From a virus, in IMG/VR virus record IMGVR_UViG_3300037470_000856, positions 64,001 through 128,000 of that record: 64,000 nt of DNA. One strand, given 5' to 3'. Every line of letters starts with the position of its first letter. Position 1 is the stretch's first letter. A program made the translations under genes and the position numbers. Shown here piece after piece: positions 16,169-44,564 of the stretch. Below the pieces are notes generated by a model. The model made no database searches. It saw nothing but the letters and a program-made list of their open reading frames with translations, and had not been told where the DNA came from.

Positions 16169-16392
16169 CCGCGATCCTACGGCTTGCGGAACACCAGGAT
16201 GGGCTCTCGTGCCTGGTCCTGCGACCGGTTGAGAGACGAGGTGGGTCGGTGGCGGTGCAATGGCGGTGACCCCGAGACGACCACTGATCCCACCGGTTCG
16301 CCACAGCCTCAAACCCCATCTCGACCGTAGGTCTGCTCGTCCCGCTCCGCGCTCCACGGACAGACGCCAGTAGCCGCGATCCTCCTACGGCT
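16169..16392. repeat. Imperfect direct repeat flanking a probable methyltransferase-tail remnant
   Basis: ccgcgatcctacggct (16169-16184) and ccgcgatcctcctacggct (16374-16392). The interior minus frame ends REPILVFRKP*. Confidence 0.5.
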
Positions 16393-20757: not shown

Positions 20758-22218
20758 CTAGCGCGAGCGGGGGAGTCCGAAGACCTCGGCGACGTCGGGA
20801 GCGGTGTCCCAGATCTTGCCGAGCTCGGCGATCTCATCGTGGGCAGCCTTGGGCATGCCCGCGACGTTGCCAAGCGACTTGGCGCCGGCGGAGGCGGCCT
20901 TGGGCTGCGGGCGCAGCTTGGGGGCGCCGGCCTTCTTGCCGCCCTTCTTCTCGTCGGAGCCGAAGTCGAAGTCGTCCTTCTCGGCCTTCTCGTCGGTGCC
21001 GGCGTCGGCGTCCTCGGGCTCCTCCTTGGACTCCTCCTCCATCTCCTCTTCCTCGCCGCCCTTCTTGGCGGTCTTCGGGAGGTCGAGGTCGGCGTAGAGC
21101 GCGAGCAACTCGTCGTCGGCGGAGGCTTCCTTGTCGGACTCCATGAGGCCCATCGGGTCGGTGCCCGCGGTGATCTCGATGTCGTTCTCGGTCGGGTCGC
21201 CCTCGCCGGCCTTCTTCTCCGAGCCGTTGCTCTGTGCGACGACGGGGGTGTGTGCGGCGGGATCGGGGTTGACGTTGCCGCCCTCGCCCGACTGGATATC
21301 CGCGCCCTTGGCGAGGGGATCCCGGTTGTCCTCGGCCTTCTTGCCGGCCATGACGGACATCTCCTCGTCCATCTCCTCGAGCATGGCGCGGAGCATAGCC
21401 TCTTCCTCCTCTTCCTCCTCTTCCTCCTCCATGGCGCCCTTCTCGCCGGAGTAGCTGTAGTCGGCCTTGTTCTGGTCGACGCCGTCGCCGTCCATGTCCT
21501 CGGCCATGAGGTAGGCCATGAGTTCCTTGTCGCTCATGCCCTCGTCCTCGTCGTCGTCGGCGCCAAAGAAGTGGCCCATCGCCTTGACGATGCGGCCAAG
21601 CGCGCCATCGATCTTGTCGAGGCGGGCGGTCATCTCGTGAGCGGCCTTCTTGCCGCCCTCGTCGAAGAGTTTGGTGCCCTCCGACTCCTCGCCCTTCTCG
21701 AAGTCCTTCTCGAAGTCCTTGTCGTCGTCAGCATCCTCGCCGGCGAGGACGGAGAAGGTCTCCATCGCCGCCTTGAGTTTGGCGTCGTCGAGGTCCATGA
21801 GCCGCACGGCGCGGTCCTCGACCGCGCTGACCAAGGCGTTGGGCAGCATGGCCGACGCGAGGCGGACGCACAGTGCGGCGCGCTGCTCGGCGAGCTGCTT
21901 GAGGGATGCCTGCTTGCCGCCACCCTCCGCCATCGCCTGCTCGGGCTTCTTCTGGAATTCCGAAGTGGCGGGATGGTCGAGTTTCTCCGTCGTCAGGTTG
22001 CCGGGCATCGCCGGAGACGGAGACTCGGGCTCCATCGGCTTGTGGAGGTCTTCCGCCCACGAGATAGTGTCGCCGTTCTCGTACTTGTCGGCGTCGGGAT
22101 CAGGGTAATAGGCTGGGGACGCAGGGCCTTCGGTGCGGTCCACCGCAGGCATCTGCGGAGGCGGCGAAGCCTTCTTGCCCTGCTCGGCCAGTTTTCGGGT
22201 GAGTCGTTGACGTGCCAT
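20758..22218 (-). CDS. Putative prohead scaffolding/core protein
   Basis: 486 aa, very acidic and low-complexity, between protease and capsid genes; many K-x-A motifs. Confidence 0.7.
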   Translation of the reverse strand: MARQRLTRKLAEQGKKASPPPQMPAVDRTEGPASPAYYPDPDADKYENGDTISWAEDLHKPMEPESPSPAMPGNLTTEKLDHPATSEFQKKPEQAMAEGGGKQASLKQLAEQRAALCVRLASAMLPNALVSAVEDRAVRLMDLDDAKLKAAMETFSVLAGEDADDDKDFEKDFEKGEESEGTKLFDEGGKKAAHEMTARLDKIDGALGRIVKAMGHFFGADDDEDEGMSDKELMAYLMAEDMDGDGVDQNKADYSYSGEKGAMEEEEEEEEEEAMLRAMLEEMDEEMSVMAGKKAEDNRDPLAKGADIQSGEGGNVNPDPAAHTPVVAQSNGSEKKAGEGDPTENDIEITAGTDPMGLMESDKEASADDELLALYADLDLPKTAKKGGEEEEMEEESKEEPEDADAGTDEKAEKDDFDFGSDEKKGGKKAGAPKLRPQPKAASAGAKSLGNVAGMPKAAHDEIAELGKIWDTAPDVAEVFGLPRSR

Positions 22219-22245: not shown

Positions 22246-25200
22246 CTAGAACCGGGTCTGCTTTCGCAGCGAAAGGATTCGCCCAAGACGCACCAAGGTC
22301 TTGGCTTCTCCCGTTTGTGGTTTGCGACCGAGCACCTCGGCACAGCGCGCGAGGTACTTATCGAGGGACGGATGCCCGTCGGTAGACCCGACCCGGAGAG
22401 CGGTCCTGTAGAGATCCCTCGAAACTTGGAAGTCGTGGGTCTGCTTGAGCCGGGCGATCCCGTCGATCAACTCCACGTCGGACCGGGCGATGCAAAGCAG
22501 CGCCTCGGTCCCGGCGGCCAGCTTGGCCATGGCCGCCTGGTGGTTGATGTTCTCGTTGGTGGAGGTCTCGAGTTCGGCGGGCGAGGGCTCGTCCTTGTCG
22601 CCCTCGTCGCCCTGCATCTTGTCGCGGAGCTTCTTCTTGATCTTGTCGAGGACGTACTTCTCGACCGCGTCCTCGAGATCCTTCATCGGGTCCGCGTCCT
22701 CGCCCCCGCCCGGGTCGCCTGGCATCCCGGGCATGCCGCCTCCGGCGTCGTCTCCGGCGTCGTCTCCGGGAGGAGCGGTGAGCTGCGCGAGGCGAGCGTG
22801 CGCGAGGCGGGCCTGGCGACGCTCCTCGGCGAGCTCGGCCGCGGTCTTGGATCCCTCGAAGCTGACGGTCATGTCGCGCGCGGCCTTGGCCATCTCGTCC
22901 TCGCTGGCCGTCCACTGGCGCGGGGGCTCCGAGAGGAGGCGCTGCATCTGGCTGCGTGTGTCGAGGTTGATACTGTCGGGCTGCAGGATGTTGCGCATCA
23001 CGGCGCCCTGGAACGCCGGGACGTCGACCCAGGATGCCTCGATGAAGGTAACGCCACCCGTGGGGTCGAGCGTCTCGTGGCCGCACAACTCGGCGACCCG
23101 AAATTTGTTGCCAAGCTGGTCGTACTCGTACTGGCCCTTGCCATACTTGACGTGCTCGCAGTTGTGAACGGCAAGGCCCTCGACCACATATGAATGATCG
23201 CCCTCGACCCCGAAGTTGTGGACCGGACCAGAGTAGGGCTCGCAGGAGACGCCCCGAACGCGGTAAATGAGCCAGTTACCGACGCGCTTGAACCCATCGG
23301 TCACGGCCGACATCGTGACACGGGCTGTCTCCCGGTCAGAGAACCTGACCTCATCACCGAACCCTTGAGGATCGGAGACCACAAGACCGAACGAGGGGAG
23401 CCACCCACGGTGGTCGCGTACGGTAACGGAACCGTCACCGTTCACCACTTGGTCGAGGGTCGCGCTGCGACCTCCAAAGGTGACCTTCTTGTACGAGTAC
23501 AAGCCGCACCGCGCGGCTAAGATGTGCATCTGGTTCAACAGGTTGAGTGATGTAGTGGAGCCAACGATACCGACGTCCGCCTGCGTTGCATCACCGCCGA
23601 GCCACCCGAACAGGACGTGCTTCTGCACCTCAGGACTCCATCGGAGAATTGAGGGATCAAGACGTTTTTCGTGCGAATACTCGCCGCAGTACCGGAAAAA
23701 GAACTCGGCGACCTGGGCATCCATGAAACGGACATCCACGGACCCGCTGTCCTCTGTGCTGCCGGAATTCCGGTTCCGATGCACCCGGACCGACCTGTCT
23801 GCGCTCCCCACCCACTGCCGGTTGCAAACCTTGCACTGGTAACAGTCATCGGCCCCTTTCTTGAACCGGACGTTGTACGCGTACTCCGAGGGAGCCCGGC
23901 ACCCCGGGCACATGACGTCAGAGGAGACCGACCGGCTCGTGCTACGTCGATGGACCGGAGTCACGCTGTCGCGGGCGACCAAGGTGCGCCAGTTTTCCGA
24001 CGAAACCCGTCGCTCGTCGCGGCCGAACTCCTCGTTCAGGAGCTTCTCCACCTCAGCCGCGAGAGTGTCATGCTCGTGGTGGCCGAATGTGAAACTGACC
24101 CCGACCCTCTCACTGTCCCGCTTGATGAAGGATCCCTCGGCCAGGAAATAGCCAATAAGCCGCGCCCTGTTGACGGTAGCGTCGTCTGTGTTCTCCGTCT
24201 CCTGCGGGATGGGGAAAGCGAGATAGTCCCCAGCCCTGAGGTCTCTAGCCGCGACGAATTCCAAGTCCACGTCGAACAGGCGTTTATAATCCCCCATCTC
24301 CACGACGTTCACGGCATAGGGATTCGGGTTTTGCAGCCGCGTGTTGTGGCCTGGGAGGAACCGGCGCCGGAACGCCTTCACCGAACCGCGCTCGTGCTCC
24401 ACCGTACGCCGAAGCGGAGCTCCACAGCCGCACGCGCAGATCTGTGCGGGTCGGAGCGTCCAGTACGGATGGTTGGGGGTGGAGCGCAATCCAACTGGGA
24501 CCCCGTCGACGTCGAGCGAGATGAGATGCCCCTCGTACGGACGGCGCATTGTCTCTGTGACGGCGCCCGTCAAACCTGTGTGGGTAACGACGGCATCTCC
24601 CTCGACAATCTCCTCGATCGGCACGTACCGTCCGTCCGCCAGGAGCACACGGGTGCCGGGAGGGAAACACATCTCGGTCTCGTCCGCAGCCACGTTCCCG
24701 CACTTCGTGCAGATCGTCTCCGTGACGCTGCAGCCCATGCTCATCGTGCCCATGCGGCCCGACTCGATGTCGCGGATCAGGCTCGCGTGGCGACGGCTCG
24801 TGGCGATGAGGATGTCGACGTAGACCGAGTCGCCGATGTCGCGGGCGGCGGCGTCGATGATGCGGCCCTTGGACTGGTCCTCGATCTGGACGTGCTCCAC
24901 GAAGTTGTGGGCGCCGACGAAGGTGCGGTAGCTCTTGAGCAGCACCGGGCGGTCCCACGCGTCGTGGTTGTTGTTGATGTAGATGTCGCACTTCGGGAGG
25001 ATGTGGTAGTTCGCCCACCGCCGATTCACCCGACGTCCCATCTCGCTGACGTTGCCGAGTTTGACGTTCGACACCTCGGAGGTGTCCACCGACGCCACGA
25101 TGGTCGCGTGCGTCAGGAGATACTTCTCCGGGGAGAACTGGTCCTGGAGGATCTCCGACGCCTGCGCCACGAGGTTCGGCGAGCTCGAGGCGGTGCGGAC

Positions 25201-25293
25201 GCGGCCCCTGGCACGCTGCACGAAGTTCCCCCAGTAGTCGATCGACCACGAGGGCTGTGTCACGTCCGCGCGGGCGTACTTGAGGAAGGCCAT
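22246..25293 (-). CDS. Prohead maturation protease, intein-containing
   Basis: Extein motifs HNFVEH, MSMGC and TFIEASWVDVPAF resemble HK97/assemblin-type proteases; position in the head operon. Confidence 0.75.
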   Translation of the reverse strand: MAFLKYARADVTQPSWSIDYWGNFVQRARGRVRTASSSPNLVAQASEILQDQFSPEKYLLTHATIVASVDTSEVSNVKLGNVSEMGRRVNRRWANYHILPKCDIYINNNHDAWDRPVLLKSYRTFVGAHNFVEHVQIEDQSKGRIIDAAARDIGDSVYVDILIATSRRHASLIRDIESGRMGTMSMGCSVTETICTKCGNVAADETEMCFPPGTRVLLADGRYVPIEEIVEGDAVVTHTGLTGAVTETMRRPYEGHLISLDVDGVPVGLRSTPNHPYWTLRPAQICACGCGAPLRRTVEHERGSVKAFRRRFLPGHNTRLQNPNPYAVNVVEMGDYKRLFDVDLEFVAARDLRAGDYLAFPIPQETENTDDATVNRARLIGYFLAEGSFIKRDSERVGVSFTFGHHEHDTLAAEVEKLLNEEFGRDERRVSSENWRTLVARDSVTPVHRRSTSRSVSSDVMCPGCRAPSEYAYNVRFKKGADDCYQCKVCNRQWVGSADRSVRVHRNRNSGSTEDSGSVDVRFMDAQVAEFFFRYCGEYSHEKRLDPSILRWSPEVQKHVLFGWLGGDATQADVGIVGSTTSLNLLNQMHILAARCGLYSYKKVTFGGRSATLDQVVNGDGSVTVRDHRGWLPSFGLVVSDPQGFGDEVRFSDRETARVTMSAVTDGFKRVGNWLIYRVRGVSCEPYSGPVHNFGVEGDHSYVVEGLAVHNCEHVKYGKGQYEYDQLGNKFRVAELCGHETLDPTGGVTFIEASWVDVPAFQGAVMRNILQPDSINLDTRSQMQRLLSEPPRQWTASEDEMAKAARDMTVSFEGSKTAAELAEERRQARLAHARLAQLTAPPGDDAGDDAGGGMPGMPGDPGGGEDADPMKDLEDAVEKYVLDKIKKKLRDKMQGDEGDKDEPSPAELETSTNENINHQAAMAKLAAGTEALLCIARSDVELIDGIARLKQTHDFQVSRDLYRTALRVGSTDGHPSLDKYLARCAEVLGRKPQTGEAKTLVRLGRILSLRKQTRF
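23161..24669 (-). mobile_element. Intein with LAGLIDADG endonuclease in the prohead protease (503 aa)
   Basis: Begins CFPPGTRV, has STPNHP block B and LIGYFLAEG / LFGWLGGD, ends AVHN followed by Cys. Confidence 0.95.
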
Positions 25294-30700: not shown

Positions 30701-33700
30701 CTCTCGGCGCTTGCGCTGCACGTAGGCGTCGTAGGTCGGAGCGGCGAGCCTCGCGTTCGGGCGCGGCCGGTACTGCTCCTCGGGCGAATTGTCGACGTGC
30801 CGGCACATGTCGCAGCGTGTCCCGCACCGCCAGTACTCCTCGGAGTCAAAGGGGTAGCCGTCGTCGAGACCGTAGTGGTCGAGCAGCACGTTGAGGCAGC
30901 GCTCGCAGCTCTTCGCGGCGACCATGATGGCGTCGCCGACGTCCCACTGTCCGCTGCGCACCATGGTGTTGACGAGGTCGGTCGGGTACGACGACTCGCC
31001 CGCGCCTACGTCGGTGCTCGTGCCATCCTCGTTCAGACGTAGGATGCTGTGGTGCAAGACGTGGGGGAACTGGCTGTGCATGTACTCGGCGCCCTCGGGG
31101 GGCTGCCACGTCTCGTACTCGCCGAGGTCGCCGCCGCCGAGGCGGTTGCCATGGGCGTCCTCGTACCAGAGGATCGTGAAAATCTGGGGGTCGAACTCAA
31201 GCCCCTCGACGTGAGGGCGCGGACGCTCGTGCTCTCGGGCGATCCGGTAGACGGCCGGCGCGTTGCGGAGCCACCACCGACGGTCTCGGGACACGAGGAC
31301 CGGGGCAACCCCGGCGTGCGCCAAAATGAGGCGCTCGGTGTCGGTGCCGAGGAGCGCCGCCGTGCGCATGATTTTGGGGTCCGACGCCTTCCTCGTGTGG
31401 CTCTCGTTGACGGTGCCGTCCTTCATGTAGCCGTCCTCCAAACCCGGCACGAGGTACTGGCTGCGAAGGGTCGAAGGATCGTGCCCCACGGCCTCCGCCG
31501 TCGCTTCGAGGGCCTTCTTGAACTCGTCCTTGAGTTTCTTCTCGCGCTCCTTTCTGTCCTCGGGGAGTTTGCCCTTACGGACCTTGCGGAGTTGCGCCTT
31601 CATCTCGCGGTTGGCGTGGAACCCACGGAGGTCCTTCGCGGTGATGTCAAGCGGCTCGAGGTACTCGTTGACCTCCTGCGCCGAGACGCTCAGGACGCAG
31701 TCGTTGGGCTTCTTGCCCTTGCACGCCTCCTTGAGCGCCGAGACAACTCGCGGGTTACTGATCTTCTTCTTCTGCTCGACGCCCGACTTGCCGACGTAGG
31801 AGACCGTGACGGAGCCCCGGCCGAGGGTGATGTGCTTGACGCGCCAGGTTGTGACGCCGAAATGGCCCTCCTTGGCGCTGTCGTCGTTCCCGACGCGCTC
31901 AAACGTCTCGTCCATGAGGCCCACGGCCAACGCGAGATCGCGGGTCTTTTCGTCCTTCGACTTCACGTCCTTGCGGACCTTGGTCTGGAGTTTCTTCATC
32001 TGGCGTCGCAGCTTCTCGACGCGCTCCGCCTTCTTGCGGTTGCGGTCGGCCACCTGACGGTCGCTGTACTCGTAGACCGTCATCTCGTCCCCGTCCTTGG
32101 TCTTGACCTTCTTCTTAGACTTGTAGCGGACGGCGATGGCGGAGCACGTCGCCATCTTGCCCAGGTCAGGCTCGCGGGCCTCCATCTTGTCGCGGTAGCG
32201 GAACACGCGGACGGGGATCTTAGGCTCGCGATCATCGGGCAGCAGGTTGCGACGCCGCACCACCTCCGCGTGCTCAGGGACGAGGTACAGGAACAGCGCG
32301 GGGTGCGTGGTGTCGATGGTGAGCTGGCTCGTCGTCCGCATCTTGTCGGTGACGCGAACCGGGTTGAAGGGGCTGTCGGCGTCGTGAATCGCCTTGACGA
32401 GGGCCACCGCGGCGGCCTCGGGGCGTCGCACGTCCTGAAGGCGCTTCTGGGCCTCCCACCGGCGCACGATCGAGCTGACGTAGTCGTCGCCGTGCGTGTA
32501 GCCGGCGTCCGGGTAATTCACACCGTGGTTCGTCCGCGTGTTGACGCGGTCCGAATCGAGCTCAGTGACATGCGCAGGGTGATTCTTGCTGCACTCGATG
32601 CTGAACAGCTTGTTGCCGTCCGCCACAAACGTGTGTCCCCGGATGCCGCCGTTGTCGGTGCGCAGGGATCCCACGGCGTCGTCGATGTTGTCAAACGCGA
32701 GCGCGCGGTAGATCTTGGGGCCGTCCTTGGAGGTCAAGGGCCTCTTGCCCTTGCCCTTCCCCGGCGACTTTTTCTTGCCCTCGGCCTCGTCGCGTACGAC
32801 CATGAGGGTGGTGTTGACGGCCGCGATGCCGTGCTCGTTGACCCCCTCGAGGTAGCCGGTGACCGTGTCGAGGACGACGGCCATCTCGGTGCCGTCCTTC
32901 TCGATGTGCACGATCTCGAGCTTCGCGTCGTAGGCTCGGTCGCGGTTCTTGAGCAGGCACAGGCTGTCGCCGAAACGGCGCCCCGCGATGATGCACGCCT
33001 CCCTCAGCATGGCGGTCTTCTTGACGGACCTTCCCGAGTCGAGCACGACGATCTCGGACGTGTACGGCTTGCCTCGCACCTCGGTCACCGTGACGACCCC
33101 GTCGTAGCCGTCCTTCTGGAGCGCCTTGGTCAGCGCCTGCCCGCGCTTGCGGTACCGTCGCTCGAGCTGCGCCTTCCACGAGTTGTCGTCGTAAATCAGC
33201 CCGTCGGGGTCGGTGTTGACGGCGAGCACGAGAGGGTTGTCGAGTTTCACGGTGCCCGTGACGTATCCGGGCAGCGGGTCGTCGTCGTCGTCGTCGGTAG
33301 TTTTGTGCGTGACGTAGAACCCCGCGGGCTCGATCTTCTGCTGGTACGGGTCCGACCCCTTCGGGGCCCGCGGTGCCTTCTCGGTGTTGCGCAGGAACTC
33401 AAACTCGACCGGCGTGCCCGTCTCGAACTTGCGACCGCGCTCCTCGACGGTGCGGAGGGGCATCTCGTCGGACCTCCGCGAACTACTCCAGCGCTCGTAG
33501 ACCTTCCGCTGTTCGGCGTCCGGCAGCGAGTCGAAGACGACGTCGTTGCCCGTGTCGGGGTTGCGGAAACGCTGCCCCTTCACCAAGTCGAGAAACTCCC
33601 TGGAGTACGCAGCCTGCTTGCGCCGGTCGGCTCGCCAGATCTTGTAGAGACCGATGACGCGGTTCTTCTTGCGGCCCTTGGGGATCGGCTCGATCTCCAC

Positions 33701-33841
33701 GGACGGCACCCCGCGATCGTCGTCGAACAGGCGCACGACCCGGCCGCGCTTGTTCTTGCCGAACAGCACCTCGTCGCCGACCTTGAAGTCGTCCTGCGCT
33801 GCCAGGTGGCGCATGGCCACGCGTGCGACGAGAGCACTCAC
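27782..33841 (-). CDS. Giant multidomain protein: KOW, ART-like, Ntn-hydrolase (C45-like), DNA topoisomerase IB, GNAT, coiled coil
   Basis: Likely start GTG at 33841 (GTGA overlap), 2019 aa. TopoIB motifs RVGN, GKSG, KDLR, GH, QYL. Ntn motifs CIIAG...KNRD...EGVNEHG. GNAT motifs RRGSG...WYRGMGF. ART-like motifs GFY...NPL...GYDGV...EIVV. Confidence 0.85.
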   Translation of the reverse strand: MSALVARVAMRHLAAQDDFKVGDEVLFGKNKRGRVVRLFDDDRGVPSVEIEPIPKGRKKNRVIGLYKIWRADRRKQAAYSREFLDLVKGQRFRNPDTGNDVVFDSLPDAEQRKVYERWSSSRRSDEMPLRTVEERGRKFETGTPVEFEFLRNTEKAPRAPKGSDPYQQKIEPAGFYVTHKTTDDDDDDPLPGYVTGTVKLDNPLVLAVNTDPDGLIYDDNSWKAQLERRYRKRGQALTKALQKDGYDGVVTVTEVRGKPYTSEIVVLDSGRSVKKTAMLREACIIAGRRFGDSLCLLKNRDRAYDAKLEIVHIEKDGTEMAVVLDTVTGYLEGVNEHGIAAVNTTLMVVRDEAEGKKKSPGKGKGKRPLTSKDGPKIYRALAFDNIDDAVGSLRTDNGGIRGHTFVADGNKLFSIECSKNHPAHVTELDSDRVNTRTNHGVNYPDAGYTHGDDYVSSIVRRWEAQKRLQDVRRPEAAAVALVKAIHDADSPFNPVRVTDKMRTTSQLTIDTTHPALFLYLVPEHAEVVRRRNLLPDDREPKIPVRVFRYRDKMEAREPDLGKMATCSAIAVRYKSKKKVKTKDGDEMTVYEYSDRQVADRNRKKAERVEKLRRQMKKLQTKVRKDVKSKDEKTRDLALAVGLMDETFERVGNDDSAKEGHFGVTTWRVKHITLGRGSVTVSYVGKSGVEQKKKISNPRVVSALKEACKGKKPNDCVLSVSAQEVNEYLEPLDITAKDLRGFHANREMKAQLRKVRKGKLPEDRKEREKKLKDEFKKALEATAEAVGHDPSTLRSQYLVPGLEDGYMKDGTVNESHTRKASDPKIMRTAALLGTDTERLILAHAGVAPVLVSRDRRWWLRNAPAVYRIAREHERPRPHVEGLEFDPQIFTILWYEDAHGNRLGGGDLGEYETWQPPEGAEYMHSQFPHVLHHSILRLNEDGTSTDVGAGESSYPTDLVNTMVRSGQWDVGDAIMVAAKSCERCLNVLLDHYGLDDGYPFDSEEYWRCGTRCDMCRHVDNSPEEQYRPRPNARLAAPTYDAYVQRKRREGGPALSREEWEARVMGVDDEDAPEREPPSREEWDALRKSMIERHSLTDSHAAYRPQHRHMSVDLIRVNEDRRGSGSASRAMEETLDWVDSNGVTVTFTPTSEFGSSKKHLEKWYRGMGFVPNKGPNKGRNKDFRFQDAMIRTPQAKTATKSPAEKEDEAVEKMLRTEPKKKPPRYDLRDNRTLDEEDPDLDGMGGGDKGDPDLSMKWNKVARRVALRHVMAEAPVQPKSGLSFEEWVKNQKFKHPETGNDVGFTSLPPDEQTKIREKWRGQQQPEEEGTDKGKKTEEDKERTTEDVHVELEQARDEMRDIEAQMGDLTDEIKDLKSKINQQRDEYLPHMGEGPGRQQLLDSMQKMQREMGRKQDELDDKKEEHADAKARVDELRRERKDPGFAKEKREEKLRQERAKKVERAVERAQTNMEEMLGKETRLPPDLATQIGGALNDLDEAQVESFSIDFQDTLKNLKQMDPSSEEAVDVASRAAKFGDLHGLTDPKELAERLAQLSYAERIVGNPMNIGGTPVGVTEMDSEKYSERAQAAFKQFERLPSSLRRRAADQVARALKGLDPETNRAQELNAILTGMNIAQVAVTGESLPGRPQPSKGMAALVKQMVVDGKGSELFRTTEDYFAEQARRKMQEGLDDMNFEQLGDLTTGGDEEHGYADLVDLMKNDGTPDVLRAMMKDFLVQDILNDQWGDRAVRDTMQAAGIADADDPEARAEVLGEATSRMKPRMEKVLEAQERIAEAQRNGEQPSAEDLEMVEGTFDPKKGTGLREKAKAILNTIRDKFDKVVISPASAVLNHFVQTGEREVLEQETLPHPDEKAKEPRSREEHEKAETSDRETPESADSEEVKDDEEHGPGDVWGTEQGNWRAKNEDGVPKSFKKRDEAERYADKGGDEDEKKPARGGEAPGEEFSAEFGDFEERGPTRFAVERVAQVWLERGRHGRMAGDWLAHVRSFHPDDPLRPVVVLDVA

Positions 33842-36800
33842 CGGCGCAGCTCCTCGATCACCCGGTCGGTCAAGTGTTGTCCCTTGACCGCGAGCTTGGG
33901 GTCCTGGAGGATGATGTGACGAGCCGTCGGCACGATGTGACGACGGTCGGGCCCGGGCAGCTTGAGGACGTCGATGATGCGGGGGTTGTCCACGGGCGGC
34001 TTGATGAGTTTCTCGACGAGCGCGACAGCGTCCTTCTCGGGCATCGAGACGGTCAGGGCTCGCAGGCGGTCGCGTCCCGACGGATCGAGGAAGGAGATCG
34101 GCGTGGAGGCGGGCACGCCCAGCTCGAGCAGGTCGAGCAAGAACTGCACCTTTCGGTTGCGCCGGAGCTGGTTCGCCATGTACGCGGCGAAGGGCTTCTG
34201 CTCCTGGATCATCTCGGACACCACGTCGAGCAGCCCGAGCATCTTCATCTCCTTGAGGGAGCGCCGGGCGGTCGGCTGGTTGAGGACGTCGTTGACGAGG
34301 ATGGACGCGACGGCCTCCCATGGCATGCGCTTGAGCTTGGGCGCGTTCTTGCGGATCGACCGGATCACGTCGGGAGGGATCTTGAACCCGTACTTGCCCG
34401 TGAACTTGATAGCCCGGAGCATGCGCGTGGGGTCGTCGGAAAACACCCGGTCGGGCTCCTGCGGGCACTTGATGACGCGGCGCTTGAGGTCGGCTCGGCC
34501 GCACCCCGTCAGGTCGATGATCTCCGCCTTGTCGGGCCCGTGCGCCAGGTCGAGCATGCGCCACAGCAGCGTGTTGTGGACTACCACCCCGTTTGCAACG
34601 AAGGCCGGCTCGATCCCGTCACCCATCGAGATGTCGAATACGTCTTGGTCTCCGGCGTCCTCAACCGAGACGACCTCAACGTACTGGTATCCCAGTTCAA
34701 ACAACCGTTGGAGTTTGACATGTTCACTTGCGCTGATAGCCATGAGGCTCGCCAGGAACTCCCCGAAATCACCGCGAACGTAAGCGTCGTGCAGAAGTCG
34801 TTTCGGACGGCGGAGCGCCTCCAAAATACCGCTTTCGGCGACCTCACCACCCTCGTCCGTTCGGTACATCGAAGGTCCTTGGTTGTTTCCGACCCGTGTC
34901 CTGCGTCCCTTCAAAAACCCTTGGAGGTGTTCTTTCGGGACCCCATACCGGTTCCGGCTCTTGCAGGTCTGCTGCGCGTAGTCGAACCCCTTGGTCACCA
35001 TCCACGGCTGGATCTTTTCCCACAGGAGGGCCGAGTCCACGGCATTGAGGTAGACGAACCTGTCCTTCACCTTGCTCAGGACGCCGTGAGCACCGAGGAG
35101 CGCCTGCAACTGCTGTCGGACATGAGGCGACGCCGAGCAGAAGGTGATACGACCCGTGTCAAGTCGAATGGAGCCGTCACCCTCGAGGTAGGCGGCCAAG
35201 AAGGCCCACTGACTCCGCTCGTCGGCTTGGAGGATGGACCAAGGCACCACCTTGTGGTGAGAAGGAGACTTTCCATCCCGCGCACCTCCGCAGTACAGGC
35301 CCAGTTCATCCAGCCACCCCACAACTGCCTTGCTGTCGGCGTAGATGTCGTAGCCGTCTGAGTTCGCGACGAACTCGACGCCCCGCAAGACCCTCACCGA
35401 GCCCTTCTCGATCACCTTGTTCTGCAAAGGTTGGAACCCGAACACAGTGTTGAAACACTCGACGTAGCGGGAAATGAGAGCCCGATCCGAGTTGCTGAAT
35501 GACACCCGCTTGTGTGTGTTCGATCCCTCAGCCACCACGCACCCGATCACGAACGCCAGCTCGGGCGTCATCGCTTCGGGTTTGTGCGCCGCCTTGAGAG
35601 TGCCGCGCTTCGGCTGTGCGGGGTCTTTCAACTCCAAAGTCAGCGGCTCCTGCCTCGTCACCTGCCGCACGGGAACGCAGAGAAGGTCGCCCTCTTCAAG
35701 TTGATCGGCCTGCACCCAAACGTGGTTGTGCCCTCGGAGGACCAAGACTGGATGGTGGTGCGTGCAGGAGAAGGAGTGGCCCCACTCGGTCGTCACCCGA
35801 AGCGTAGGGGCACAGCCGCTGTACTGCCACCCCACAGCCACCGCGGGACCGTCTTTCCCCGCCACGGTCAAATTGAGATCCTGATGGTCTCCCTTCTCTC
35901 GAGAGGCGATCTGGTCGATGCGAAGGATGCCCCTCTCCGTAGGAATGAGGGTGTCTCCGGCCATGCAGTTGAAGGTGAACTCCCGGCGCAGGACGTCCTC
36001 CTCGATCGTCGCGGGGGCGACCGAGTGGGGCTTGTACCCCTTGCCGCCGCTGCCCCCGTAGCTCTCCTTGCGGGCGTTGGCGATCTCGAGCACCTCGCCG
36101 TCGAGATCCTCGCCGCCCACGATCCACGGCCCCTTCACGGTCAGGATGGCGACGCCGTACTGGTTCGTCGTTACGTTGGTCGGCGCCGGGATGTTCCGGG
36201 CGATCTGCTTGGCGAGCCAGTCGGAGTCGCGGCCGGCCTTGGTCATGTCGATGACGATGTCGATGTCCTTGATCGGCTGGTTGATCAGAAAGTTGCGCAC
36301 AGCCCCGCCCACGACGTAGGTGTCCCGGCCCACCCCGAGGCGACGGGTGAGATCGGACAGCCACTTCATCAGGGCCACGTTTTTGCGATGGACGGAGCCT
36401 TCCACGGTCAAGGATGCTACCCGACGCCGGATCCACGTCGAGGCGACCTTCGCCGCGGAGGGCCCCATCTTGAGCTTGTGGACCTCGGGGAGCCCCCAAA
36501 CCTCCATCTCGTCGAAGGCCCATGATCCCTCGGGCACGGGGCCGTCCCACTCGGCGTCCATGCCGGGCATGTAGGCGAGGGTGACGTGGGGCTTGTACTC
36601 GGGGAAGCTGTCCCCGACCTCAATGCCCGCGTCGTGGAGCTCCTGCTTGACGCGGTGCTTGAAGCCCGACAGATCCTTGTCGAACTCGACGGCGACGTGC
36701 GGGACGCGGCGATCCTTGTCGTGGTGATCGAAGTACTCGAGTCCGTTGAGCCGCGCCTCGCACTTGGGCCACCACTTGCGGCAGCACTCGCGGAGCACCT

Positions 36801-37944
36801 CGACGAGCTTCTCCTGCTGCTTCTCGCCCTTGAAGTCGCCGATGTAGAGGAACGTGACGTGGCTCGGAGAGTCGTCGTTCTCGCCCAGGCTCGGAAACTT
36901 CTTCGCCAGGTCCTTGGGCAGCGGGATGAACATGCCGACGGACTCGCCGTCCCCGGTCTTGCTTCCCGTGGCCTTGGCTGTCTTGCCCTTGGGGTACTCG
37001 CCGTACTTCTCGCCCACGACGCCGTCGGGCACCCTGCGCTCGCGCACGATGTCCTTCGGCATCTCGGACTTCTCGTTCTTCCAGGCCTCGAAATGCTTCT
37101 CGCAGAACCAGGCGCGCCCGCGACCGTCTGCCCAGATGCCCTCGCGCTCGGGCGGCTTCTCGCATCCGGCGTGCATGCACTTCGACATGCTGTGACGGCT
37201 GGCGGCGTATCTCCAGAGCTGCGCCACCCGGATCGCGGTTTTCCGGCTGCCTCCGCGCCACTCCGCGAACTCCTTCTGCACCTGGGCGCGGAAGTGCGGA
37301 CTCGTTTTGAGCAGCGTGGAGGCAGCTACCTCGGGGTAGCGCTTCCGCGTCTGCGGATTGGTGTTCAGGACCTTCTTCTTGCCACCGTCGTAGCGTTCCG
37401 CGAGGAACTGCTCCCACTCGGCGCTGGTGGGCTTGCCAGGGTCCTTGGGAGGCTCCTTCTTGGGAGGCTCCTTCTTGGGCTCGGGCTTTTTCTTCGGCTG
37501 CTCCTCGGAGGCCGGCCCCACACGCTCTCCGTGGAGCGCGTTCTTGCCTCGGCCCAACTGGCTCGACGGGCGGTCCACGAGGGCGAACAGGCGTCCTCGA
37601 TCCACAAATCTCAGACCGTGCTTCGGGGCCACGTCCGAGAATTCCATGAGGGGGCCCGAGAACAGGGAGGAGCCGTCGGGCTTCTTGATGTGCACCTCGG
37701 TGTTCGTCACCTTGTCGGCCCACGCCTTGGCCTCGTCCTCCGTCTTGAACCCTTGCAAGACGGCGCCGCCCCTCTGCTGGTGCGCGATCGCCTTGTGCCG
37801 GTCCACCACGCGGACGGGGCCCGAGGGCCACTGGTTCGGGTTCACGTCGGCGACGACGGCGTAGTTGGCCTTCGCCTTCGCCACCCGCACGCGCAGCCAA
37901 GAGTTTGCGGCTTTCGTGAAGTTCTGAATTGCGGAACGCGGCAC
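33838..37944 (-). CDS. Multidomain protein: repeat module + 2H phosphoesterase + class II CCA/poly(A)-type nucleotidyltransferase with intein
   Basis: HVTF and HVTL (two HxT motifs); VVGGAVRN...DIDI, EDVLRREFTFN, DDPTRMLRAIKF. Confidence 0.9.
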   Translation of the reverse strand: MPRSAIQNFTKAANSWLRVRVAKAKANYAVVADVNPNQWPSGPVRVVDRHKAIAHQQRGGAVLQGFKTEDEAKAWADKVTNTEVHIKKPDGSSLFSGPLMEFSDVAPKHGLRFVDRGRLFALVDRPSSQLGRGKNALHGERVGPASEEQPKKKPEPKKEPPKKEPPKDPGKPTSAEWEQFLAERYDGGKKKVLNTNPQTRKRYPEVAASTLLKTSPHFRAQVQKEFAEWRGGSRKTAIRVAQLWRYAASRHSMSKCMHAGCEKPPEREGIWADGRGRAWFCEKHFEAWKNEKSEMPKDIVRERRVPDGVVGEKYGEYPKGKTAKATGSKTGDGESVGMFIPLPKDLAKKFPSLGENDDSPSHVTFLYIGDFKGEKQQEKLVEVLRECCRKWWPKCEARLNGLEYFDHHDKDRRVPHVAVEFDKDLSGFKHRVKQELHDAGIEVGDSFPEYKPHVTLAYMPGMDAEWDGPVPEGSWAFDEMEVWGLPEVHKLKMGPSAAKVASTWIRRRVASLTVEGSVHRKNVALMKWLSDLTRRLGVGRDTYVVGGAVRNFLINQPIKDIDIVIDMTKAGRDSDWLAKQIARNIPAPTNVTTNQYGVAILTVKGPWIVGGEDLDGEVLEIANARKESYGGSGGKGYKPHSVAPATIEEDVLRREFTFNCMAGDTLIPTERGILRIDQIASREKGDHQDLNLTVAGKDGPAVAVGWQYSGCAPTLRVTTEWGHSFSCTHHHPVLVLRGHNHVWVQADQLEEGDLLCVPVRQVTRQEPLTLELKDPAQPKRGTLKAAHKPEAMTPELAFVIGCVVAEGSNTHKRVSFSNSDRALISRYVECFNTVFGFQPLQNKVIEKGSVRVLRGVEFVANSDGYDIYADSKAVVGWLDELGLYCGGARDGKSPSHHKVVPWSILQADERSQWAFLAAYLEGDGSIRLDTGRITFCSASPHVRQQLQALLGAHGVLSKVKDRFVYLNAVDSALLWEKIQPWMVTKGFDYAQQTCKSRNRYGVPKEHLQGFLKGRRTRVGNNQGPSMYRTDEGGEVAESGILEALRRPKRLLHDAYVRGDFGEFLASLMAISASEHVKLQRLFELGYQYVEVVSVEDAGDQDVFDISMGDGIEPAFVANGVVVHNTLLWRMLDLAHGPDKAEIIDLTGCGRADLKRRVIKCPQEPDRVFSDDPTRMLRAIKFTGKYGFKIPPDVIRSIRKNAPKLKRMPWEAVASILVNDVLNQPTARRSLKEMKMLGLLDVVSEMIQEQKPFAAYMANQLRRNRKVQFLLDLLELGVPASTPISFLDPSGRDRLRALTVSMPEKDAVALVEKLIKPPVDNPRIIDVLKLPGPDRRHIVPTARHIILQDPKLAVKGQHLTDRVIEELRR
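34573..35967 (-). mobile_element. Intein with LAGLIDADG endonuclease in the CCA-type nucleotidyltransferase (465 aa)
   Basis: Begins CMAGDTLI, has CTHHHP and VIGCVVAEG / FLAAYLEGDG, ends VVHN followed by Thr. Confidence 0.95.
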
Positions 37945-41276: not shown

Positions 41277-44200
41277 CTATCGCCCCCGCCTGCGAGGAAC
41301 CTGCCGCTTCGGGTCGGAGCCGCCGAGCAGCCTCTTCCTGTGGTTGATGCGTCGGACCTTGGCCGAGACGCCGGGCTGGTTCGGATCGGCGTTCGTCTGG
41401 GAGCCCGCGATGTGCTTCAGCTTCCCAAGATGCATACTCGCGAGATAGAGCGAGCGCGCGAGCGCGTCCGCCATATCGTCGTGCTTCCCGTCGGACTGCG
41501 GCGCCTGGACGTCGATGATGTACTTGGCCTTGTAGGTCGCTTGGAGGGAGCGGATCTCCTCAAGGTACTCAAGGTGCTCGGGAGGGGTCTCCTCGCGCCG
41601 GAGGTATGCCTGCTTCTCCTGGTCGGTGATGTCGTAGAGGGAGAGGCGCGACGTATCACCGACGCGGTCCCACAACAGCGACTTGAAGTTCTGCCAGATC
41701 TGGCTCTTCTCGGTCTGCGAGAAGAGTTTGCCCTCGAGCATGGTCAGGCCCTTCTTAGCGAGCGCCTGCTCAAGGGGGATGGCGCCCCACTGGTCGAAGA
41801 GGCCCTTGTAGAACCGGAAGCGGCGGGAGAGCAGGTAGATCCAGTTGGCGACGTCCTCGAACTCAAGCCGGTCCTTGTCGATGAACTCGCCCTCGCCGGC
41901 CTTCATCTTGCCGATGAAGTCGAGGATGATGCGGCCCTGCGGGTCGATGTGCGTGATGGCGATCGACGAGGCGTCGTGGACGAGGCCGAGGTCGAACCCG
42001 ACGAAGTACGCCTGCCGAGGCTCCCCGCGGTGACGTGGGCGAAGGTTCTTGTCGATGCAGTCCCACAGATCCTGGTCCGAGTCGAGCCAGCCGAGGGTGC
42101 GGTCGGTGAACTCAGCCCCGAACTCAACCTGGAACTTGCGCGGGTCGAAGGCGTACTCCTCCTTGAACGCGGCCGCGGACATGGTCGGGTTCACCTCCCA
42201 CGTCGGCGCCTGCACGGCGAGCATGTTGCGGGTAGAGTCCCCCCCGTTCATCGCCTGCTTGAACTTGTCGTAGAAAAGACCCTGCTTGCCGAGGGGGCTC
42301 GAGATCATGATGATCCGGCCCTCGGACTCGGTGTCATCGCCGTCGGCCGGGTTGCCGAACGCGTCCTTCGGAGTGAACGTCTTGTTCGACGGCGACAGGG
42401 CCGTGTAGACCTCCTCGGCCGAGCTGCCGCCCTGCTCGAGGAAGTGCGCGACCTCGTCGAGGATGATGACGATGTTGCCCGGACCGCGGAGGCTCTTGGC
42501 GTTGCAGGCCGCGAACGAGACGCGCACGGAGGCGCGGGCCCGGGGGTTCTCGACGTAGGAACCGAACTCCTCGATGTCGTACGGAGTCTGGAAACGCGCG
42601 TAGGAGAGGGTGTTGTTCGCCGTGTACCGCTTGAAGAACGAGCACTTGGCGAAGTGGTGGCTCACCTCCTCGTAAAGAAGACCCGCCTGGTCCTTGCCCG
42701 TCGCCACCGAGAGGAGGCGGATCGGGTTGGAGGGGGCGAGCCCGTAATACCTCTGCGGGTTGCCTTTGTTGATCAGCTTGTACGTCTCGTACGCGGAGAT
42801 GCACGCGGAGATCGTCGTGTTGTGATTGGTCAGACCGTTGGCCACGAAGCTCTCGCCCTCGGGCACGTTGAGATCGTAGACCTCGTCATGGTCCTCCACC
42901 ACGAACTCGACGGGATCGTAGAAGTAATCGGCGGAGAAAATCTCGTCGAAATGCTCGATGAAGTCACGAGACGCTCCTTGGCCCAGGGCCACCGGTCGCG
43001 CCTCCCTCCAACGGGGGTAGGTCATCTCGTCGGGCGCAGAGAGCTTGATCGTGTTGCCGAGTTTGTCGCGCAGCTTGGACCGTTGCCAGCCATTGCCCAT
43101 GCTTTTGTGCTCCGTGGGAACGGAGTCCAGCAGTCTCCGGCACCACGAGCGCTGGTGAGGAACACCCTCCGTGTCGCCCCTCTCTCGGGACACCGACCGA
43201 ATCTTTGCGACAAGAGGGGCCATCTTCTTGCGCGTCATGAACCCCACGCGCTCAGCAAACATCGTGCGCGACCGCAACCCCCGAATCGTGAGGACGTGGT
43301 AGTCGCGTCGATGCTTCTTGTTCCACTTGGCCTTGCGACGGCTCACAATGCCCAAGTTAAGGAGCAACACCTGAACCTCGCGAGCAAGACGCTCGCTGGC
43401 CGTCGAGAACGAGACGGTGTTTCCGACTGACTCGACGTCTCCGTCCGTCTCGAACAGACCCCGCAGGAACGCCTGCACGACAGGTACCGGAGACTTCATG
43501 ATCGACCACGGGACGTGCTTGCTGTACCGGTCGCAGTCCCAGTCCCACCCCAGCTCGTGCAGGAATTCGCGAGCGGCCACGCTGTGAAAGCGCAACGCAC
43601 CCGTGTTCTCCGTCCTCTTGTCCATCGTGCGTGTGGATGGCCCGAGCAGCTCCTCGAAGAGACCCTCAGCCAGTTCCCACATCTCGTCGTGCTCGACGGT
43701 CATGCAGATGCCGTTCTGGGGCTTCCAGTGACCGTCTCCCACCAGCATCCCGAGAAGGAGGCCCCACTTCTCGTCGACGTGAGCTGGGAATTGAACGTTC
43801 TTGCGTCCCGGATGAAGCAGACGCTCGACAACATCGGTCGTCGAGACCTGTTCGGACGCCCACAGATCCGTCCCACGGTGAACCGCGATCTGATCTCTCT
43901 CACGGATCTCGTCCAGCCTGCGCCAGTCGATGACCCCTTCCTCCGTCATAACCCTGACGCGGTGGTTGGGGGTGCCCGCGATCTCGTACCCGCAGTGCGT
44001 CTTGACTCGACGAATCTCTCGGTGGCCTCCTCGATAGAAGTAGGCCGACTTGCTGCGCTTCCGTGCCCCCTCCTGTGCGACGGTGATCTCGAGAGGGAAG
44101 TGCTCCTCGCCAGGGTACTGAACCCACGACAAGAAATCGTCGAAGCTGTCGATCCTGACCACTCCTTGGTCGGTGAAAACGAGAGTGTCGCCGACAACAC

Positions 44201-44564
44201 ATTTGCCCGAGCGGCGTCCGATGGGGAGGATGAGGTTGCGACGCTCGTGGCCCGGCTCTACCTCGGCGATGTTGCACTCATCGCGGTCGTGCTTCCACCG
44301 CAGGTACTCGGCCTCGGTGAACCACTGCTCATTCTCCCGTTTCCAGTCCGTGATGCGGAACCGGTTGTTCGAATTGTCGTCGAGCGGGATGCCGTAGTGC
44401 GCCTTGAGGATGACGCGCTGGACGGGCCAGAGCTTGAAATTGAGGCCCCAGTCCGCCTCGATGAACGTGACGATGTCGACGACGTCGCGCTTGCCGTCGT
44501 CGACATGGAGACGCCCGGCGTTTAGTGCGATCCGGGCAAGGTTCGCTGCTGCCTTCCCTGCCAC
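41277..44564 (-). CDS. terL: Terminase large subunit, intein-containing
   Basis: Walker A GRRSGK|TT split by the intein; Walker B VIILDE; ISSP coupling motif; nuclease GFDLG...HDDMADA. Confidence 0.92.
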   Translation of the reverse strand: MAGKAAANLARIALNAGRLHVDDGKRDVVDIVTFIEADWGLNFKLWPVQRVILKAHYGIPLDDNSNNRFRITDWKRENEQWFTEAEYLRWKHDRDECNIAEVEPGHERRNLILPIGRRSGKCVVGDTLVFTDQGVVRIDSFDDFLSWVQYPGEEHFPLEITVAQEGARKRSKSAYFYRGGHREIRRVKTHCGYEIAGTPNHRVRVMTEEGVIDWRRLDEIRERDQIAVHRGTDLWASEQVSTTDVVERLLHPGRKNVQFPAHVDEKWGLLLGMLVGDGHWKPQNGICMTVEHDEMWELAEGLFEELLGPSTRTMDKRTENTGALRFHSVAAREFLHELGWDWDCDRYSKHVPWSIMKSPVPVVQAFLRGLFETDGDVESVGNTVSFSTASERLAREVQVLLLNLGIVSRRKAKWNKKHRRDYHVLTIRGLRSRTMFAERVGFMTRKKMAPLVAKIRSVSRERGDTEGVPHQRSWCRRLLDSVPTEHKSMGNGWQRSKLRDKLGNTIKLSAPDEMTYPRWREARPVALGQGASRDFIEHFDEIFSADYFYDPVEFVVEDHDEVYDLNVPEGESFVANGLTNHNTTISACISAYETYKLINKGNPQRYYGLAPSNPIRLLSVATGKDQAGLLYEEVSHHFAKCSFFKRYTANNTLSYARFQTPYDIEEFGSYVENPRARASVRVSFAACNAKSLRGPGNIVIILDEVAHFLEQGGSSAEEVYTALSPSNKTFTPKDAFGNPADGDDTESEGRIIMISSPLGKQGLFYDKFKQAMNGGDSTRNMLAVQAPTWEVNPTMSAAAFKEEYAFDPRKFQVEFGAEFTDRTLGWLDSDQDLWDCIDKNLRPRHRGEPRQAYFVGFDLGLVHDASSIAITHIDPQGRIILDFIGKMKAGEGEFIDKDRLEFEDVANWIYLLSRRFRFYKGLFDQWGAIPLEQALAKKGLTMLEGKLFSQTEKSQIWQNFKSLLWDRVGDTSRLSLYDITDQEKQAYLRREETPPEHLEYLEEIRSLQATYKAKYIIDVQAPQSDGKHDDMADALARSLYLASMHLGKLKHIAGSQTNADPNQPGVSAKVRRINHRKRLLGGSDPKRQVPRRRGR
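42819..44201 (-). mobile_element. Intein with LAGLIDADG endonuclease in the terminase Walker A (461 aa)
   Basis: Begins CVVGDTLV, has GTPNHR and LLGMLVGDG / FLRGLFETDG, ends TNHN followed by Thr. Confidence 0.95.

Follow-up and report, generated by a model that had tools for sequence, protein, structure and literature searches.

The DNA examined here is a stretch of 64,000 nucleotides (the window; one strand, 5' to 3') that covers positions 64,001 to 128,000 of the IMG/VR virus record IMGVR_UViG_3300037470_000856. The source record is 141 kb long at an estimated completeness of 31% and is therefore attributed to a very large phage. Our analysis concerns a predicted cysteine hydrolase domain of the N-terminal nucleophile (Ntn) class, embedded in a minus-strand open reading frame (ORF) of 2019 amino acids that lies between the portal gene and the genes for the protease, the scaffold and the major head protein. 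The order of genes on the minus strand is an intein-bearing large terminase, the portal, an intein-bearing 2H-phosphoesterase/CCA-type protein and the 2019-residue ORF, followed by three small ORFs, an intein-bearing head-maturation protease, an acidic scaffold-like protein and the major head protein (Table 1).

The 2019-residue protein opens with the leader VSALVARVA/MRHLAAQ (slashes mark the bond at presumed cut sites) and contains, next to the Ntn domain, the catalytic core of a type IB topoisomerase (TopoIB), a weak GNAT-like match and a stretch common to DarB-like phage proteins. Several unrelated effector domains are thus joined in one polypeptide in a head context, as is typical of the so-called polyvalent proteins. 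The built-in zincin-like peptidase of such proteins was not found, and a domain search of the 2019-residue protein detected no peptidase family besides the Ntn domain. A megablast search with 18 kb around the gene gave no match among GenBank phages.

Table 1. Features of the 2019-residue protein and of neighbouring genes, in window coordinates.
Feature	Residues	Position	Strand	Basis or remark
Multi-domain ("polyvalent") head-module ORF	2019 aa	27782..33841	minus	ORF and translation; GTG start at 33841, stop at 27782
Linker KKTA-MLREA	275-282	32996..33019	minus	Two [KR]-x-A sites; the second, R280-E-A282, abuts the nucleophile
Cys283 codon TGC, predicted N-terminal nucleophile	283	32993..32995	minus	Invariant in family; superposed on known nucleophiles
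Cys-Ntn hydrolase domain (predicted)	283-548	32198..32995	minus	AlphaFold2 model, structural matches, invariant columns
K562-M-A564, first [KR]-x-A after the domain	562-564	32150..32158	minus	14 residues beyond the last strand of the fold; the TopoIB module then follows
TopoIB catalytic core	599-791	31469..32047	minus	Pfam PF01028, E 1.6e-27; neighbouring module
Head-maturation protease gene, intein-interrupted		22246..25293	minus	phrog_18299 "head maturation protease", E 8e-7; Hint and LAGLIDADG matches
Acidic scaffold-like protein		20758..22218	minus	Between protease and major head protein
2H/CCA-type protein		33838..37944	minus	Intein with LAGLIDADG endonuclease
Large terminase		41277..44564	minus	Intein with LAGLIDADG endonuclease
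ORF with homing endonuclease and methylase domains		16385..18901	minus	LAGLIDADG_2; N6/N4 DNA methylase

Position, motifs and fold of the predicted Ntn domain

The minus-strand reading of window positions 32100-33100 gives ...VKKTAMLREA-CIIAGRRFGDSLCLLKNRDRAYD...EGVNEHG...RTNH, and the same string is obtained from the ORF translation (VKKTAMLREA-CIIAGRRFGDSLCLLKNRDR...EGVNEHG...RTNH). An initial annotation of this DNA had drawn attention to the string and to a Cys codon at 32993-32995 placed directly after a KTA...REA linker, and our analysis agrees on both: the codon, TGC at 32995-32993, specifies residue 283 of the 2019 amino acids and immediately follows KKTAMLREA. The extent then proposed (32190-33020) takes in the modelled domain (32198-32995) together with the linker, the confidently modelled part running from C283 to about Y548. 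The motif residues of the domain are K298, R300, D301 and R302 (KNRDR), N335 (EGVNEHG) and N438 (RTNH), and R460 lies further on. Alignment of 51 stand-alone relatives, numbered from the Cys, revealed invariant columns at C1, K16, R18, D19, R20, Y22, N53, N156 and R178, where N53 is the Asn of EGVNEHG and N156 that of RTNH; since they are invariant in this alignment, the KNRDR, EGVNEHG and RTNH motifs are not the product of chance. The motifs around R18, D19, N53, N156 and R178 resemble motifs of bile-salt hydrolases (BSH) and isopenicillin-N acyltransferase (IAT), and these five residues may correspond to oxyanion-hole and supporting residues of the class.

An Ntn-type fold had also been proposed, with structure prediction as the check, and the prediction bears it out. 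The AlphaFold2 model built from the 51-sequence alignment reached a predicted local distance difference test score (pLDDT) of 91.1 and a predicted template-modelling score of 0.89; single-sequence AlphaFold2 of the domain was unusable (pLDDT 36.8). A Foldseek search with the model returned 97 PDB chains at E<=0.001, and all the matches listed are Cys-Ntn enzymes. The Z scores of VIA-align were 21.0 for 3gvz (222 residues), 19.9 for NAAA beta chains, 18.6 for acid ceramidase and IAT, and 16-17.6 for BSH and penicillin V acylases (PVA), with all matches spanning 195-246 residues. Residue 1 of the model is superposed on the nucleophile Cys of every top match, namely C126 of NAAA (126/128), C143 of acid ceramidase, C103 of IAT and C2/C1 of BSH/PVA. 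The model and its structural matches display the four-layer alpha-beta-beta-alpha arrangement of the Cys-class Ntn enzymes, and Cys283, as the first residue, opens the first strand (model residues 2-8), which is where the nucleophile of that class is placed. The assignment of fold and nucleophile is well supported by the model, and the best explanation for residues 283-548 is a cysteine Ntn amidohydrolase module that is predicted to be catalytically intact.

The domain had been described as C45/choloylglycine-hydrolase-like, which holds at the level of the superfamily; membership of a curated family is another matter, as the domain scores below the cut-offs. For Pfam PF03417 AAT (C45) the score is 21.4 bits against a cut-off of 23.2 (E 2.3e-4), and for NCBIfam NF040521 C45_proenzyme it is 42.5 bits against 85 (E 4.9e-11). 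Because the E-values are significant but the scores fall short of the curated cut-offs, the domain is, by sequence comparison, distantly related to C45 but does not qualify for membership under the curators' rule. Twenty-six of the 51 stand-alone relatives match Pfam AAT (best E 8.2e-10), some of them passing the PF03417 cut-off. A phmmer search with the domain found no match among PDB sequences, the family profile reached IAT there only at E 0.29, and PHROGs holds no family for the domain.

The family to which the domain belongs is large, viral and unannotated. A library-wide HMMER search retrieved representatives of 411 clusters, of which 139 had E-values below 1e-30, and the family was present on 467 IMG/VR contigs. 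Nearly every alignment begins at query residue 1, the Cys, although the position of this Cys in the proteins ranges from residue 2 to residue 1558; the start of the domain coincides exactly with the Cys in stand-alone proteins and up to 1,558 residues deep. Among GenBank phages (50,697 records; tblastn with two different members) the family was detected only in the Chryseobacterium phages MA9V-1 and MA9V-2, where it is annotated as hypothetical, and these two phages (described in PMC10537231 and PMC13414440) are its only cultured carriers. The stand-alone homologue of MA9V-1 (gene MA9V1_182) starts MTSANNNEFLNE/C and, aligned from the Cys on, is 33% identical (E 8e-49). A feature-based atlas returned viral "hypothetical protein" clusters only.

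A relative has a 3125-residue version of the polyprotein (L005:3460-12837, plus strand), which has the same start and is 82% identical in the domain. In this version the domain is preceded by an inserted ParB-like module and followed by an inserted DUF5661 module, yet the junction ...KKMASFHREA/C is retained. As the modules were shuffled and the REA/C junction was kept, the domain behaves as a cassette bounded by such sites. The extra modules of this relative, all of which the window version lacks, also include a second N-terminal repeat with an ART-like region. Near its C-terminus there is an HExxH string (VHEMTH), seen by eye only, which could belong to a zincin peptidase of the polyvalent type and is likewise absent from the window version.

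Leader classes and placement of [KR]xA sites

The residues preceding the Cys were compared in 150 representatives, six of which are N-terminally truncated, so that 144 were used. The Cys is present in all 144. It is preceded by [KR]-x-[ASG] in 90, the type to which the window junction (REA/C) belongs, by x-x-E in 45 (43 of these with L, I or V at -3), by the initiator Met only in six, and by other residues in three. Leaders of stand-alone relatives measure 0-50 residues. Those of the [LIV]xE class look like the capsid-targeting sequences of phage T4, e.g., MKTVSEF...LNE/C and MQLLNYNEFIEQINE/C. In T4, IPI-III and Alt are brought into the prohead as cargo by leaders of 10-20 residues, which gp21 removes by cutting C-terminal to a Glu after a short motif (PMC7411985; PMC9026906). 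Leaders of the [KR]xA class often contain an R-[VI]-[AT]-x-R motif (10 observed versus 0.2 expected), which also opens the polyprotein of the window (VSALVARVAMRH) and recurs at residues 1256-1265. Even when the terminal copy is set aside, the leaders of both classes are enriched in the motif of their own class (z 2.7 and 3.1); no such enrichment is seen for the motif of the other class.

A related peptide, R-[VI]-A-x-R-[HYFW], was noted at window positions 33815-33841, at polyprotein residues 1256-1265 and 1974-1995, and in the leaders of several stand-alone relatives (P0017, P0035, P0053, P0059 and others). It thus begins the polyprotein, precedes modules in its interior and is part of stand-alone leaders, and it is a candidate capsid-targeting tag of this phage clade.

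The leader class was then set against the type of protease on the larger IMG/VR contigs carrying the domain, 14 with [LIV]xE and nine with [KR]xA leaders. The gp21-type Peptidase_S77 was found on 11 of the 14 [LIV]xE contigs and on none of the nine [KR]xA contigs, one of which is 92% complete at 619 kb. Homologues of the N-extein of the window protease showed the reverse pattern (0/14 and 6/9). The two associations have Fisher probabilities of 3e-4 and 8e-4, respectively, and the types do not overlap. MA9V-1 also has S77, and in the [LIV]xE relatives of Peptidase_S77 phages the leader ends, as in T4, in a site of the resident protease. Neither Pfam Peptidase_S77 nor S78 is present in the 141-kb record of the window, and searches of Pfam, NCBIfam and PDB sequences gave no classification of the window protease beyond phrog_18299. 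The window head-maturation protease is the candidate enzyme for cutting at [KR]-x-A, its presumed site. The intein that interrupts it seems unusual for a prohead protease.

The sites are also placed in a particular manner. Inside domains of the [KR]xA class 80 such sites were observed versus 202 expected (ratio 0.40), with 79 of the 90 domains below expectation and 41 having no site at all. For domains of the [LIV]xE class the ratio was 1.18, and the reversed motif gave 0.99. The window domain itself has none where 3.35 are expected (p about 0.03). In the 59 multi-domain proteins of the [KR]xA class, site density per 100 residues is 7.0 just before the Cys, 0.06-0.7 within the domain and 3.3 over the next 30 residues. 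A site is found at +262..+310 in 45 of the 59, compared with 46% of background windows (p 3e-6); in the window this is the KMA/T565 site. A site at the C-terminal edge is not explicable as a by-product of Ntn self-cleavage.

A further observation on these sites comes from the acidic scaffold-like protein, which contains 17 [KR]-x-A versus 8 expected (z 3.6), mostly as G-K-K-A. Such an excess is as expected for a substrate that is degraded by a protease of this specificity.

Proposed release of the domain and competing explanations

Ntn hydrolases are active only when the alpha-amino group of the N-terminal nucleophile is free. Given this requirement for a free N-terminal Cys, a cut at A/C would be needed for activity, as was already argued in the initial annotation, which left open whether the cleavage is auto- or trans-. 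We propose that the Ntn module would ride as cargo in a head-packaged polyvalent protein, in which Cys283 would be blocked by its peptide bond to Ala282, so that the enzyme would be a zymogen. As the head matures, the prohead protease of the phage itself would most likely cut at [K/R]-x-A on both sides (REA/C283 and KMA/T565), releasing an enzyme of about 31 kDa with a free N-terminal Cys, which would be active only within the capsid and, after ejection, in the next host. We assign a probability of roughly 0.58 to this reading, i.e., a capsid cargo zymogen that the prohead protease both excises and unmasks. That the protein is packaged, that it is cut, and by which protease, are points we infer; on the choice between auto- and trans-cleavage, the indirect evidence leans to trans.

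A broader proposal, for which we see about even odds, is that the catalytic N-terminus of these Ntn enzymes is made by a viral capsid-maturation protease rather than by self-cleavage, with the cut-site code before the Cys being rewritten as the enzyme moves between phage lineages with different proteases. The code would be [LIV]-x-E where the protease is of gp21 type and [K/R]-x-A where it is of the type found in this huge phage. Arming would take place only in the capsid, and the enzyme would be ejected into the next host as an effector, possibly acting with ChaC-type domains on gamma-glutamyl compounds.

A number of points weigh against release by the prohead protease. To our knowledge, every characterised Cys-Ntn proenzyme of the superfamily (IAT, PVA, NAAA, acid ceramidase) activates itself, and the domain retains all residues needed for doing so. 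The leader classes are mostly bound to clades on the domain tree (7 changes, 141 tips) and the contig samples contain near-duplicates, which leave about 9 versus 8 independent groups; the correlation with protease type may for these reasons partly reflect shared ancestry. In many relatives the leader has just 4-5 residues, a small target for a protease. Over the whole 2019-residue protein [KR]xA is not enriched (26 versus 27 expected), so that the argument from sites is valid for their placement and not for their number, and three such sites fall inside the TopoIB module.

The principal alternative is autoproteolysis, in which Cys283 and its own oxyanion hole would attack the Ala282-Cys283 bond. 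Such an N-to-S acyl shift is the route taken by IAT, penicillin V acylase, NAAA and acid ceramidase; in the present domain the conserved residues at -3 and -1 would then be structural requirements and the prohead protease would have no role at the junction. The closest sequence family bears the name "C45 family autoproteolytic acyltransferase/hydrolase" (NF040521, E 4.9e-11), the structural neighbours include precursor/mature pairs of self-activating enzymes (2x1c/2x1d, 6dxw/6dxx and 5u81/5u7z), all invariant residues of catalytic type are retained, and a leader length of 4-5 residues is common among propeptides that are removed by self-processing. However, self-cleavage leaves unexplained why the -3 to -1 motifs fall into two sharp classes that track the protease type, why one of them matches the measured type of gp21 site, why [KR]xA is avoided inside the domain in the [KR]xA class only, and why a [KR]xA site recurs beyond the C-terminal end of the module. 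Moreover, the six relatives that begin M-C require no propeptide chemistry. We regard autoproteolysis as a serious rival account of the junction, though a less likely one than release by the prohead protease.

Far less probable is that no cut occurs at A/C, the embedded domain being a non-catalytic binding or structural module (a pseudo-enzyme) or Cys283 an ordinary internal thiol. No cleavage has been observed for any member, and the polyprotein has other modules that do not require processing in order to fold. However, pseudo-enzymes usually lose residues such as the Cys and the Ntn-type residues, which are invariant across the 144 representatives, and homology starts exactly at the Cys in nearly every match, what stands before it being in every case a short leader, a linker or the initiator Met. 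Least probable of all is an internal start at Met278 (ATG 33008-33010), which would yield MLREA-C... as a product of its own, comparable to the many relatives whose annotated start is M-x-[KR]-x-A/C, and make a cut in the upstream polyprotein unnecessary: a Met stands at -5 here and in several embedded relatives (AMDRTA/C, AMDREA/C, VMSKEA/C, SMPRTA/C) and 24 relatives are annotated with a start five residues ahead of the Cys, but the sole upstream purine-rich stretch (GGAAGG) lies 16-21 nucleotides from the ATG, too distant for a typical ribosome-binding site. Furthermore, the Met of the 3125-residue relative is at -8, some long N-terminal leaders contain a Met at -5 that does not serve as their start, and a five-residue leader would still need removal.

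Ntn hydrolases are textbook self-activating enzymes. If release by the prohead protease is true, a family in which another protein, a viral protease, exposes the nucleophile would represent a form of regulation new to the class. The junctions would also provide a checkable marker for the cut site ([K/R]-x-A) of a previously uncharacterised type of prohead protease, by which cargo could be read from sequence throughout a clade of huge phages. An abundant and unannotated family of this kind bears on what huge phages inject into their hosts, and the proposal is directly testable. A search of the literature on Ntn/C45 domains in phages, polyvalent proteins and prohead proteases gave no description of such a system.

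Known systems, companion modules and neighbouring genes

The IAT/C45 family (PF03417 AAT, NF040521) is the closest by sequence and shares the Cys-Ntn fold, and its members are proenzymes in which the Cys is exposed by a cut directly before it. Unlike those enzymes, the domain lacks the N-terminal subunit of about 100 residues: matches to the 313-position NF040521 profile start at 100-117 for domain residues 9-23, stand-alone leaders are short as described above, and upstream of the Cys there is either a short leader or a module unrelated to that subunit. Self-cleavage is the rule in C45 enzymes, whereas in the present case the cut is more likely made by a viral protease. NAAA and acid ceramidase (MEROPS C89) as well as BSH and PVA (C59) have the same fold (Z 16-20) with the nucleophile Cys superposed. 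Enzymes of the NAAA/BSH type have similar motif positions, i.e., a basic-N-x-D pattern on the strand that follows the Cys, a loop with G-x-N-E-x-G and a turn containing T-N, which may be equivalent to their catalytic residues. In contrast to the domain, with which they have no significant sequence match, these enzymes are cellular, lysosomal or secreted and are self-activated or unmasked by removal of Met, and we know of none that serves as virion cargo or as a polyprotein module.

CV2077 (PDB 3gvz) is the best structural match and presumably belongs to the NRDE/TANGO2 family. The KNRDR of the family recalls the NRDE motif, and NRDE/TANGO2 proteins of giant viruses are among the viral fold matches. 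However, only one of the 51 relatives touches Pfam TANGO2 (E 0.01). TANGO2-type proteins start with M-C and have no leader.

The IPI-III and Alt proteins of T4 offer a parallel in that a short N-terminal leader loads the cargo into the prohead and is removed at a protease site before ejection into the host; relatives of the domain in gp21-type phages have T4-like leaders that end in [LIV]-x-E directly before the Cys. The T4 cut merely frees the cargo, whereas the one proposed here would also create the catalytic residue. The window phage differs further in its protease type and presumed site ([KR]-x-A), and its internal domain would need two cuts. Like the polyvalent proteins of phages and conjugative elements, for which proteolytic release of the parts has been proposed (PMC5512222), the window's protein and its relatives are strings of effector domains beside head genes, with shuffled modules (TopoIB, 2H, CCA-type nucleotidyltransferase, ParB-like, GNAT-like). 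The survey of polyvalent proteins proposes a built-in zincin peptidase as the processing agent, a domain not found in the window's protein, and mentions neither Ntn hydrolase nor type IB topoisomerase domains (Iyer et al., 2017, PMC5512222).

With respect to function, the model predicts that the substrate would be a linear amide. The companion modules found in relatives are TopoIB (six of the 12 large relatives scanned), 2H phosphoesterase, CCA-type nucleotidyltransferase, RNA ligase, HAD, superoxide dismutase, DUF5661 and ChaC/GGACT. The last, of gamma-glutamylcyclotransferase type, directly follows the Ntn domain in at least four relatives (P0098, P0104, P0116 and P0140), mostly with no [KR]xA between the two, and precedes it as GGACT in a fifth (P0005). 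This recurrent fusion hints at gamma-glutamyl compounds or their products and at a possible shared substrate pathway, as a lead and nothing more.

The gene immediately upstream of the 2019-residue ORF combines a 2H phosphoesterase with a head domain of the poly(A)-polymerase/CCA type. In two relatives (P0104 and P0033) a CCA-type domain is found in one polypeptide with Ntn and TopoIB, and in another (P0024) 2H is joined with Ntn. Inteins with a LAGLIDADG endonuclease occur in three genes of the head module, i.e., the large terminase, this 2H/CCA-type gene and the protease, all on the minus strand. Finally, a LAGLIDADG_2 homing endonuclease domain is combined with an N6/N4 DNA methylase domain in a single minus-strand ORF of the window.

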